The notes under the pieces are model-generated. The model was not told the origin of the DNA. It saw nothing but the letters and a program-made list of their open reading frames with translations, and searched no databases. A stretch of DNA of 64,000 nucleotides, taken from positions 3,109-67,108 of the forward strand of contig JBQTKI010000027.1 in assembly GCA_052386275.1 (NCBI GenBank). The letters are read 5' to 3'. This document shows, in pieces, positions 52,128 through 54,643 of the stretch; positions within the stretch are counted from its first letter, which is position 1; every line of letters begins with the position of its first letter. The stretch is from Gammaproteobacteria bacterium (lineage in GTDB: Bacteria > Pseudomonadota > Gammaproteobacteria > Steroidobacterales > Steroidobacteraceae). The position numbers and the translations under genes are program-made.

Positions 52128-54643
52128 CCCACGGCTCCTTCCAGACTCACGGCCAGGAGGTTCTGCGCCTCCACCGCGAATTCCATCGGCAGCTCCCGGA
52201 ACACGTCCTTGCAGAAGCCGTTCACGATCAAATTCACCGCGTCCTCCGCGCCGATGCCGCGCTGCAGGCAGTAGAACAGCTGCTCGTCGGAGATCTTCGA
52301 CGTGGTGGCCTCGTGCTCGACCACCGCTGTCGGATTCGCGACCTCGAGATAGGGGAAGGTATGCGCGCCACAGTGCGGACTCATCAGGAGCGAGTCGCAC
52401 TGGGTGTAGTTGCGCGCGCCGTCGGCGCCCGGCAGCACCTTCACCAGTCCCCGGTAGGCATTCCGGCCGTGCCCGGCCGAGATGCCCTTCGAGATGATGG
52501 TCGAGCGCGTGTTCCTCCCCATATGGATCATCTTGGTGCCGGTGTCGGCCTGCTGGCGGTGATTCGCGAGCGCGACCGAGCGGAACTCGCCGACCGAGCC
52601 GTCGCCGCGCAGGATGCAGCTCGGGTACTTCAAGGTGATGGCCGAGCCGGTCTCGACCTGGGTCCACGAGATGCGCGAATTGCGGCCGCGGCAGTCGCCG
52701 CGCTTGGTGACGAAGTTGTAGATGCCGCCGACGCCGTTCTCGTCGCCCGGGTACCAGTTCTGCACGGTGGAGTACTTGATCTCGGCCTCGTCCAAGGCGA
52801 CCAGCTCGACGACCGCGGCGTGCAGCTGGTTTTCGTCGCGCTGCGGGGCTGTGCAGTTGTGCACGGCGAAGCCCTTGACCAGGTAGGAATGCGGGTCCGA
52901 CCGGGTCTCGAAGTTGTAGACGAAACCGTCGTAGGGCGTGCGCCGAATCGCCCGGACGGGCACCAGGAAGTACCCGTTCCGGCGCATGGCCCGCCGGCCC
53001 CGCGTGTTCTGCGCGGAATAGATCCAGTACCGGGCGGAGTGACGGATCACCCGGCCGTCCTTCATCGTTTCGTCGAAGGCCTCGCGCCTGTTGAGAGAGG
53101 CGAAGGTGCCCTGCCGCGCGAGCAGCTCCTGCAACTGGAACGCCAGCGTCCTCGAGACGGTGCAGGCGCGCACGATCCGCAGCCTGTCTAGCATCGAGAC
53201 CAAGCCATCGCCGAGGTAGTAGGTGTCGATCGCAAGCTTCTGGCGCGCCGGCGGCAGATCCATGACCGCCTTGCTGAAACGCTTGTGCGCCGCGTACTTG
53301 CCGCCATGCTGCACCAGCGCATCCGAGAGCCAGTCCGAGTAGACGACGATGTAGAGCCCGTGCCGCTTGCGGTCGTGGGTTACGGACGGCCGCTGGCCGG
53401 TGACCTGCTCGACGAGTGCGACGATGTCGTCGCGCAATTCCGGCTCGTGATCGCCGATGCTGAACTCCACGGCTTGGTAGCCATTGAACGTCGTTGCGCA
53501 GCCTTCGGCGACGTAGTAGCCGAGCAGACGCAGGAAATCGTCGCTCAGCGCGGCATCGTCGCGCTCGACCTTGTTCACCGGGAACACCAGCAGGTCGCCC
53601 GGCGCCAGCTCGCCCGCAGGCACGAATTCAGGTTCGGCCGAGTCCAGAAGCTTCCGATTGAGATCGGGCCAGAGACCGGGCCCCCGCGACGAGCGGCAAA
53701 TCCTGCTGCGCCGGATCGCCAGCACCGGATGCTCGGGAGTCACGTGGAAGCGATTGGCGGAACTGCGCGGCGTGATCTCGACCAGGTCGCCGCAGTAGCC
53801 GCGGCGCATGATCATTCCGACTTCGGCCGCTTCGCCACGTTCGTTCAGGACCAGATCGTCGATGGCGATGTCGCGGATGGACCGCATCTCATCGCCGCAG
53901 CTCACGACTTCCCAGGCCGGCAGGCAGCCCTCCAGATAGGAGACGTACGCGCCTTCCTCCGCGATGATTAGGGTGCGCTCGAACTGGCCGGTCTTCGAGG
54001 CATTGATGCGGAAATAGGTGGAGAGCTCCATCGGGCAGCGCACGCCCTTCGGCACGTAGACGAAGGAACCGTCGGTGAAGACCGCGGAGTTGAGCGCGGC
54101 GTAGAAGTTGTCCCCGATCGGCACCACGCTGCCGAGGTAGCGCTCGACCAGCCCGGGGTGCTTCTGCACCGCCTCCGAGAACGGGCAGAAGATGACGCCG
54201 GCGGCGGCCAGGCGCTCCTTGAAGGTGGTCGCGACCGAGACGCTGTCGAACACCGCGTCCACGGCGACGCCGGCAAGGCGTGCGCGCTCGTGCAGCGGCA
54301 CGCCGAGCTTGTCGTAGGTCTCGAGCAGCCTGGGGTCCACTTCGGCGAGCGACTTGGGCGCGTCCGCGCGCTGCTTCGGCGACGAGAAATAGGAGATCGC
54401 CTGGAAGTCGATCGGCGGGTAATGCACGCTTGACCAGGCCGGTTCGGTCATCCGGGTCCAGCGCCGGTAGGCCTTCAGGCGCCAGTCGAGCATGAAGGCC
54501 GGCTCGCCCTTCTTGGCGGAGATCAGGCGGATGACGTCCTCGTCCAGTCCCGGCGGGACGGTGTCGCTCTCGATGTCGGTGACGAAGCCGTGCCGGTAGC
54601 GGCGCGCGACCAGCGATTCGAGTTCCTGCGGGTCGGTGGTCAT
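52124..54643 (-). CDS. sufB: Fe-S cluster assembly scaffold SufB, interrupted by a 357-codon intein (839 codons total, about 482 without the intein)
   Basis: Track ORF 52124..55252. The real start is the ATG at 54643 (MTTDPQELESLVARRYRHGFVTDIE), which overlaps the regulator stop as ATGA. Exteins ...TLIIAEEGAYVSYLEG / CTAPQRDENQLHAAVVELVA...NWYPGDENGVGGIYNFVTKRG... are contiguous canonical SufB. Confidence 0.93.
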   Translation of the reverse strand: MTTDPQELESLVARRYRHGFVTDIESDTVPPGLDEDVIRLISAKKGEPAFMLDWRLKAYRRWTRMTEPAWSSVHYPPIDFQAISYFSSPKQRADAPKSLAEVDPRLLETYDKLGVPLHERARLAGVAVDAVFDSVSVATTFKERLAAAGVIFCPFSEAVQKHPGLVERYLGSVVPIGDNFYAALNSAVFTDGSFVYVPKGVRCPMELSTYFRINASKTGQFERTLIIAEEGAYVSYLEGCLPAWEVVSCGDEMRSIRDIAIDDLVLNERGEAAEVGMIMRRGYCGDLVEITPRSSANRFHVTPEHPVLAIRRSRICRSSRGPGLWPDLNRKLLDSAEPEFVPAGELAPGDLLVFPVNKVERDDAALSDDFLRLLGYYVAEGCATTFNGYQAVEFSIGDHEPELRDDIVALVEQVTGQRPSVTHDRKRHGLYIVVYSDWLSDALVQHGGKYAAHKRFSKAVMDLPPARQKLAIDTYYLGDGLVSMLDRLRIVRACTVSRTLAFQLQELLARQGTFASLNRREAFDETMKDGRVIRHSARYWIYSAQNTRGRRAMRRNGYFLVPVRAIRRTPYDGFVYNFETRSDPHSYLVKGFAVHNCTAPQRDENQLHAAVVELVALDEAEIKYSTVQNWYPGDENGVGGIYNFVTKRGDCRGRNSRISWTQVETGSAITLKYPSCILRGDGSVGEFRSVALANHRQQADTGTKMIHMGRNTRSTIISKGISAGHGRNAYRGLVKVLPGADGARNYTQCDSLLMSPHCGAHTFPYLEVANPTAVVEHEATTSKISDEQLFYCLQRGIGAEDAVNLIVNGFCKDVFRELPMEFAVEAQNLLAVSLEGAVG
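52856..53926 (-). mobile_element. class-1 intein with LAGLIDADG homing-endonuclease domain inserted in sufB (357 aa, Cys1 ... His-Asn / Cys+1)
   Basis: Begins CLPAWEVVSCGDE (block A). HVTPEHPVL (block B, TxxH). FLRLLGYYVAEG (LAGLIDADG 1; LLGYYVAEG spans 53501-53527). LAIDTYYLGDG (LAGLIDADG 2, 53204-53236). GFVYNFETRSDPHSYLV (block F). KGFAVHN|C (block G). Boundaries checked codon by codon on the DNA. Confidence 0.9.

Follow-up and report, generated by a model that had tools for sequence, protein, structure and literature searches.

Work on the intein of SufB, the iron-sulfur (Fe-S) scaffold protein, has dealt almost exclusively with mycobacteria, where the intein is viewed as a drug target and a stress sensor. 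In Mycobacterium tuberculosis it has been shown experimentally to splice, and the published domain sequences (PMC8891592, Table S2) place it between ...GSYVHYVEG/CLPAGELITT... and ...YGFAVHN/CTAPIYKSD (slashes mark splice junctions throughout); PMC8891592 names, next to the mycobacterial inteins, that of Ferroplasma SufB as the archaeal example. According to PMC8529194, oxidative or nitrosative stress blocks splicing of M. tuberculosis SufB through a disulfide between Cys1 and Cys+1, the unspliced precursor is unable to bind SufC and SufD, and a redox gate on Fe-S biogenesis is the model put forward for that organism (citing Topilina 2015). Here we describe a sufB gene with a 357-codon insert in a 64,000-nucleotide stretch of a gammaproteobacterial contig (JBQTKI010000027.1, positions 3,109 to 67,108), referred to as the window. 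Judged from its sequence and predicted fold, the insert is with a probability of roughly 0.93 a canonical class 1 intein that carries a LAGLIDADG homing endonuclease of the double-motif kind and is, at the same insertion site, the orthologue of the Pps1 intein of M. tuberculosis. By its similarity to MAGs (metagenome-assembled genomes) of that family, the host is probably a member of the Steroidobacteraceae. The finding extends the known SufB intein to environmental Gammaproteobacteria (Steroidobacteraceae and relatives); it leaves the understanding of inteins or of SUF as it was and will not surprise an intein specialist.

The sufB reading frame runs uninterrupted along the minus strand from an ATG at 54643 to a stop codon at 52124..52126 and encodes 839 amino acids. 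The insert, CLPAWEVV...KGFAVHN, lies in frame at exactly 52856..53926, so that the frame and the insert limits given in the initial annotation, which was made from the DNA letters and their translations, are reproduced to the nucleotide. The N-terminal junction reads ...EEGAYVSYLEG/CLPAWE and the C-terminal one ...FAVHN/CTAPQRDENQ, with the C-extein side continuing as /CTAPQRDENQLHAAVVELV. The flanks had been taken for contiguous, conserved SufB, and once joined they form a protein of 482 amino acids that aligns without a gap to Escherichia coli SufB (PDB 5AWF, E = 3e-202). The precursor scores 874 bits against the NCBIfam SufB equivalog NF008773 (cut-off 717) in two stretches that lie around the insert, and it is also matched by Pfam SUFBD_core and SufBD_N. 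In the numbering of the 5AWF alignment, Cys+1 of the C-extein is C254 of E. coli SufB, the accepted initial acceptor of persulfide from SufE, which is needed for cluster assembly (PMC13228346).

All the motifs that the annotation had quoted (block A, HVTPEHPVL, both endonuclease motifs with their acidic residues, blocks F/G and Cys+1) are present, at the positions given in Table 1. The canonical class 1 residue set is complete (C1, T63, H66, H356, N357 and C+1), and the five of these that lie in the intein are invariant across the 44 family members compared. Both LAGLIDADG motifs end in an acidic residue followed by Gly; each of these acids, E141 and D240, is kept in 43 of the 44 inteins, that of the window included. 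By prediction, the precursor has a mass of 93.5 kDa, spliced SufB one of 53.1 kDa and the intein one of 40.5 kDa.

Table 1. Features of the sufB locus in window coordinates; residue numbers are those of the intein, and the boundaries between its splicing (Hint) and endonuclease domains are approximate.
Feature	Coordinates	Strand	Description
sufB precursor	52124..54643	minus	839 codons and stop (open reading frame and translation)
N-extein	53927..54643	minus	239 amino acids, C-terminal end ...AYVSYLEG; aligns with E. coli SufB up to G253
Intein	52856..53926	minus	357 amino acids, 40.5 kDa, Cys1 to Asn357
N-terminal splicing (Hint) region	53573..53926	minus	residues 1-118; beta-rich in the AlphaFold model
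Block A	53891..53926	minus	residues 1-12, starts with Cys1
Block B, HVTPEHPVL	53720..53746	minus	residues 61-69, TxxH = T63, H66
LAGLIDADG homing endonuclease domain	52973..53572	minus	residues about 119-318
LAGLIDADG motif 1, LRLLGYYVAEG	53501..53533	minus	residues 132-142, acidic residue E141
LAGLIDADG motif 2, IDTYYLGDG	53204..53230	minus	residues 233-241, acidic residue D240
C-terminal splicing region	52856..52972	minus	residues 319-357
Blocks F/G		minus	residues 334-357; block F GFVYNFETRSDPHSYLV; block G KGFAVHN (H356, N357)
C-extein	52127..52855	minus	243 amino acids, first residue Cys+1 (5AWF alignment numbering)
rrf2 regulator gene	54640..55116	minus	directly upstream of sufB, first gene of the operon; Pfam Rrf2, E = 3.7e-31
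sufC	51351..52127	minus	Pfam scan and synteny with intein-less loci
sufD	50035..51354	minus	Pfam scan and synteny with intein-less loci
sufS	48791..50035	minus	Pfam scan and synteny with intein-less loci
sufU, NifU_N-type	48348..48791	minus	Pfam scan and synteny with intein-less loci
sufT, FeS_assembly_P	47794..48351	minus	Pfam scan and synteny with intein-less loci

The closest described counterpart is the M. tuberculosis SufB (Pps1) intein of Rv1461, which shares host protein, insertion site and architecture (a Hint domain with a double-motif LAGLIDADG endonuclease) and is of nearly the same size (359 amino acids, against 357 in the window). A BLASTP alignment joins residues 1-357 of the window intein to residues 1-354 of the mycobacterial one at 32% identity and 48% positives (E = 1e-47), the mycobacterial sequence having been machine-read from a PDF with about 5 residues missing. 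Both inteins have the Cys1/Cys+1 pair, TxxH, the terminal HN and an Asn in block F. Insertion is directly before the conserved Cys of a (Y/H)-x-x-EG/C-(T/S)-AP motif, YLEG/C...HN/CTAP in the window and YVEG/C...HN/CTAP in M. tuberculosis; from the matching flanks and the alignment from first to last residue, the site is therefore identical, in front of the C254 equivalent, which settles the comparison with E. coli and M. tuberculosis SufB that the annotation had called for. The two differ in that the window copy has a high-GC gammaproteobacterial host and an extein of proteobacterial type, in which position -5 is Ser (AYVSYLEG) and not His as in M. tuberculosis (YVHYVEG), and the two inteins occupy clearly separate branches of the intein tree, where the bacterial (gamma-type) SufB inteins form a clade of their own. 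Archaeal SufB inteins at the same site, from Thermoplasmata (including a metagenome-assembled genome (MAG) of Ferroplasmaceae), Micrarchaeota and Nitrososphaerota, match the window intein along the full length at 33-47% identity. Their site reads HYIEG/C...HN/CTAP, and they share with the window intein a conserved CLPxxE start and SYLVKGFAVHN end, whereas their exteins are archaeal and of low to moderate GC.

Family profiles and a structural model place the insert among endonuclease-bearing inteins. Pfam LAGLIDADG_3 matches it above cut-off (35.2 versus 22.5 bits), NCBIfam models of intein-containing proteins (Tes, PolII, GyrA and IF-2) match it as well, and its top sequence match in the PDB is PI-PkoII, itself an intein. 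An AlphaFold model computed from a 12-sequence alignment has a mean predicted local distance difference test (pLDDT) score of 90.9 and a predicted template modelling (pTM) score of 0.89; in it, the two motif helices (129-141 and 226-240), each followed by beta-hairpins, are predicted to form the pseudo-dimeric alpha-beta-beta-alpha-beta-beta-alpha fold. A Foldseek comparison of the model with the PDB has endonuclease-bearing inteins in all of the first 16 places (E = 2.8e-20 to 2.1e-11), among them TliVMA (the best, template modelling (TM) score 0.74), PI-SceI, PI-PkoII, PhoVMA and PI-PfuI, and the free-standing LAGLIDADG enzymes I-DmoI, I-Tsp061I and I-SceI rank below them. TliVMA (7QSU), PI-SceI (1VDE), PI-PkoII (2CW7) and PI-PfuI (1DQ3) share with the model the same two-domain fold, a Hint horseshoe with a pseudo-dimeric LAGLIDADG core (TM 0.60-0.74), yet they have only 12-17% sequence identity to it and sit in other hosts (VMA ATPase, DNA polymerase, ribonucleotide reductase); at 357 amino acids, the window model is similar to or smaller than these solved chains (361-537).

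Three observations count against the identification as a splicing intein. Pfam Intein_splicing stays under its gathering score (22.4 versus 35.8 bits), TIGR01443 intein_Cterm is borderline (cut-off 15.6; 16.5 bits with the precursor, 14.3 with the intein alone), and block F has an Asn where many inteins have Asp. The intein family is divergent from these two curated splicing-domain profiles, and the same block F Asn is found in the splicing-competent M. tuberculosis SufB intein. Taken with the conserved residues, the orthology to that experimentally spliced intein makes canonical class 1 splicing through Cys1, Cys+1 and Asn357 the most likely mechanism for the window protein.

The same intein recurs elsewhere, with a patchy distribution. 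A scan of the GTDB species representatives (one genome per species) with a single degenerate pattern, which the window's own sequence would escape and whose counts are a lower bound because only this one pattern was used, found at least 46 loci. About 25 of the 46 are bacterial sufB genes with gamma-type exteins (AYVSYLEG/C...HN/CTAP) and inteins 58-82% identical to that of the window, and most of these carriers are MAGs labelled Steroidobacteraceae or unclassified Gammaproteobacteria or Proteobacteria. The precursor frame is uninterrupted in 23 of the 25 and incomplete in two (L005 and L022), two further full-length metagenome proteins carry the SufB intein, and copies came up in the first protein search under the names Nevskiaceae and Methylothermus subterraneus as well. 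The window precursor itself had no exact match in a collection of 15 billion proteins. The initial annotation had considered a SufB intein unfamiliar in high-GC Gammaproteobacteria; this holds for the literature, in which our search, older intein surveys not being covered, found no paper on a SufB intein in Proteobacteria or Steroidobacter, and fails for the genomes, about 25 MAGs carrying the same intein at the same site. The sequences were already public, usually mis-annotated or fragmented.

The best 120 matches to the spliced extein, at 87-94% identity, come mostly from MAGs of Steroidobacteraceae; 118 of them lack the intein and are 480-496 amino acids long and two are precursors of 839, which answers the call for a survey of intein-less alleles. 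In a neighbour-joining tree of the exteins, the five intein-bearing alleles (window, L002, L003, P0173 and P0189; 5/123, about 4%) are scattered among the 118 intein-less ones, with P0080 as intein-less sister of L003 and P0071 and P0072 as those of the window, and parsimony requires at least six changes of intein presence or absence. At two intein-less loci, L048 and L050, the gene order matches that of the window throughout, across the mla genes, aldolase, rrf2, sufBCDSUT and putA; over about 12.7 kb aligned at 68-94% nucleotide identity, the sole large internal difference is one clean gap of 1071 bp at the position of the intein.

These comparisons bear on whether the insert is an intein at all, rather than a lineage-typical SufB insertion, an assembly chimera or part of a pseudogenised sufB. 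Such an origin might be read from the many truncated or split database gene calls for relatives, from the frameshifts in the long-read contig L001 and from four window extein substitutions at columns at least 97% conserved, W314L among them. Contig ends and frameshifts in long reads account for the truncated calls, and four rare substitutions are within the range of other SufBs (median 1, maximum 5 among 123 close SufBs). The window frame is uninterrupted, the same complete architecture recurs in 23 independent bacterial assemblies, the extein ratio of nonsynonymous to synonymous substitution rates (dN/dS) is 0.11 and every intein hallmark is present. The intein-less relatives, the clean 1071-bp gap and the independent carriers exclude both a lineage-typical insertion and an assembly artefact, and we hold this whole class of explanation to be extremely improbable. 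Motifs, family scans, predicted fold, homology to M. tuberculosis and polymorphism agree with what the annotation had proposed, a complete LAGLIDADG intein in a proteobacterial SUF operon.

For such an intein, the following course may be proposed. Translation would yield the 93.5-kDa precursor, in which the Hint domain would bring the two junctions together; an N-S acyl shift at Cys1 would be followed by passage of the N-extein to Cys+1, cyclisation of Asn357 would free the intein, and an S-N shift would leave mature 53-kDa SufB beside the free 40.5-kDa intein. SufB would be functional only once spliced, because Cys+1 is the persulfide acceptor and the insert interrupts the SufB core. The free endonuclease would then cut intein-less sufB around ...TATCTCGAAGGC/TGCACGGCGCCGCAG..., and repair from the intein-bearing allele would copy the intein into the cut gene (homing). 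In the intein-less locus L048, the candidate target site reads TATCTCGAAGGC/TGCACGGCGCCG. Alleles with and without the intein show the same high conservation in the junction flanks (30 bp on each side), and a comparison of this flanking DNA between the two groups revealed no distinguishing 'immunity' substitutions; because the flanks are conserved, the intein-less alleles keep a plausible target for the endonuclease.

To what extent the endonuclease is still in use can be weighed from substitution rates. By the method of Nei and Gojobori, dN/dS over nine pairs of inteins was 0.11-0.26 for the whole intein, 0.10-0.30 for the endonuclease domain and 0.09-0.27 for the splicing domain, with 0.05-0.12 for the exteins over the same pairs. 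Purifying selection acts on the splicing domain and the endonuclease domain and, as the two are similarly constrained, the endonuclease has therefore been kept by selection, as would be expected were homing still in progress, or in progress until recently. The synonymous divergence (dS) of the intein exceeds that of the exteins in 9 of 9 pairs. Between the window and L003 it is 0.93, as against 0.40-0.63 for the sufB exteins and five neighbouring genes, which suggests, from this one comparison, that the two inteins diverged earlier than the loci that host them and that their history is partly independent of the locus. From the pattern of presence and absence together with this selection, the intein appears to behave as a mobile element.

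Other observations temper this reading. Between the window and L002, intein dS (0.76) is inside the range of the neighbouring genes; the higher dS of the inteins could stem in part from weaker codon bias (G+C content at third codon positions, GC3, 0.87 versus 0.93); and the intein sub-clades largely mirror the extein tree, which therefore points to mostly vertical inheritance with gains or losses overlaid. Given the broadly congruent trees, recent homing is possible rather than demonstrated. We give the congruence of the trees no weight as evidence on horizontal transfer, the neighbour-joining trees being without bootstrap support and the conflicts few (L004, and the group of window, L002 and L003).

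The same data define an alternative, in which the intein is competent in splicing and its endonuclease inactive, a fixed and vertically inherited remnant late in the homing cycle that is kept solely because imprecise loss would destroy SufB. The agreement of the intein and extein trees on the main sub-clades fits this account, as does a GC3 that has come very close to that of the 71%-GC host, a sign of long residence. Endonuclease decay does occur in the family: in P0008 (Methylothermus subterraneus) the second LAGLIDADG motif is without GDG (TYYR----VGQDG), and the protein looks like one with a decaying endonuclease within the same intein clade. An inactive endonuclease would not lead one to expect dN/dS in its domain no higher than in the splicing domain, nor the near-complete retention of each catalytic acid, the window included; a fixed remnant sits badly with an intein that no more than about 4% of the closest alleles carry, interspersed with sisters that lack it, and with an intein dS above that of the neighbouring genes in the pair of window and L003. 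We consider the remnant account unlikely, and prefer an intein whose endonuclease is kept by selection.

In composition the insert differs only slightly from the exteins. The initial annotation had judged the insert richer in A/T-ending codons than the exteins, and GC3 is indeed lower (0.871 versus 0.927, Fisher p = 0.009), with the dip mostly in the first half of the intein; the signal is weak, since the adjoining genes sufD (0.882) and rrf2 (0.887) are equally low. Overall GC is nearly equal, 0.657 in the intein and 0.665 in the exteins, and the composition of the intein is essentially adjusted to the high-GC host.

A further possibility is that the host has domesticated the intein as a conditional-splicing switch, in which redox-sensitive Cys1 and Cys+1 gate SufB maturation and tune Fe-S assembly under oxidative stress. 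In its favour are the two Cys nucleophiles, the identity of Cys+1 with the persulfide acceptor, the purifying selection on the intein and the inhibition of the M. tuberculosis orthologue by oxidative or nitrosative stress, as PMC8529194 describes it. By that analogy, redox-sensitive splicing chemistry is plausible for the window intein, an idea that the annotation had raised and that repeats the published mycobacterial model, and because both nucleophiles are Cys, oxidants would be expected to slow its splicing as they do in the homologue. The intein-less state of 118 of the 120 closest SufBs, in operons that are fully syntenic, argues against an indispensable regulatory role, and selection acts on the endonuclease domain too, which would be superfluous for a purely regulatory one. 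We find a domesticated switch quite doubtful, and regard the expected sensitivity to oxidants as a by-product of the chemistry and not as a demonstrated adaptation of the host. The annotation's remark that SUF is the only Fe-S machinery concerns the 64-kb window, not the genome. Near-identical operons with and without the intein form a natural comparison set for asking whether conditional splicing brings any benefit and whether the endonuclease is still homing.

The nearest relatives outside SufB share 36-39% identity with the window intein over all 357 amino acids and carry the same terminal motifs, CLPxxE at the start and SYLVKGFAVHN at the end. Their hosts are archaeal scaffolds of the IscU/NifU_N type, interrupted at KTFG/C-x-AAIA (loci L037, L041 and L042), and beta subunits of 2-oxoacid:ferredoxin oxidoreductases, interrupted at SGIG/CGSKTP (L026, L029 and L031); the proteins with related inteins outside SufB are P0028, P0031, P0035, P0056, P0195, P0197, P0199 and P0217. 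Each of these inteins is directly before a conserved Cys, which we take to be the Fe-S ligand C63 of E. coli IscU in the first type of host and presumably a [4Fe-4S] ligand in the second. No paper on IscU inteins was found in our literature search. A specialisation of the family in Cys residues that handle sulfur or Fe-S clusters (SufB, IscU/NifU and oxidoreductase beta) seems to us improbable on this evidence, and the three-host pattern may only reflect the need of an intein for Cys+1 at conserved sites. If it is more than the usual preference for nucleophile sites, the family may have been retained repeatedly because its splicing, responding to redox state or persulfide, serves Fe-S metabolism as a switch, of which the gammaproteobacterial SufB copy would be one instance.

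The poor state of the public records has a practical side. The first protein search returned no full-length precursor among the 70 intein matches listed (P0001-P0070), and most public gene calls of sufB with the intein are cut short or in pieces, under names such as 'LAGLIDADG family homing endonuclease, partial', 'SufD family Fe-S cluster assembly protein' or 'hypothetical'. A split or decayed sufB in the relatives was considered and rejected, the frame being uninterrupted in all but two of the 25 loci and two 839-amino-acid proteins being on record. The truncations arise because of contig ends and of long-read frameshifts, which split neighbouring genes too; in contig L001, frameshifts affect sufB, aldolase and mla genes. 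A mis-called sufB can make an essential Fe-S scaffold appear broken in MAGs, a pitfall for completeness and pathway calls.

The operon of the window is compact, with overlapping genes in the order rrf2-sufB-sufC-sufD-sufS-sufU (NifU_N)-sufT (FeS_assembly_P). The start ATG of sufB overlaps the stop codon of rrf2, its own stop overlaps the ATG of sufC, and the genes downstream of it span 47794..52127 on the minus strand; rrf2 is also directly upstream of sufB in L001, L048 and L050. As to the SufB protein, W314L puts a Leu in place of a Trp that is otherwise invariant in E. coli and the close relatives examined (SAITWKYPS). It is listed at 53702..53704 (minus strand) as codon 314 of spliced SufB, in the context ...SAITLKYPS..., and may be genuine or may stem from an erroneous base call (TGG to TTG). 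The other three rare substitutions are K105R, Q370R and M448L.

A search of phage and plasmid collections yielded no close relative of the intein, only distant matches in unrelated host genes. These (H1-H20) are full-length intein relatives of 22-26% identity in genes for a P1-family Dmt/Dam methyltransferase (Escherichia phages and plasmids), phage thymidylate synthase and tRNA synthetase. With relatives of at most 25% identity among the matches found, the idea of a phage or plasmid vector was set aside. Four loci from MAGs labelled Thermoanaerobaculia, Elusimicrobia, Candidatus Andersenbacteria and Latescibacterota (L010, L011, L014 and L024) combine the intein with a SufB of gamma type whose extein is 66-76% identical to that of the window; either the contigs are mis-binned or the unit of sufB and intein has crossed phyla. 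A profile search of 1.84 billion representatives gave 16,615 matches with multi-intein proteins on top and was too generic to delimit the family, so that the top matches were classified by their junction motifs instead. Four SufBs of 1166-1260 amino acids (P0192, P0193, P0196 and P0201) have an intein at the window site and further intein-like stretches, with two to three profile-matched stretches each, that is, more than one intein per SufB.

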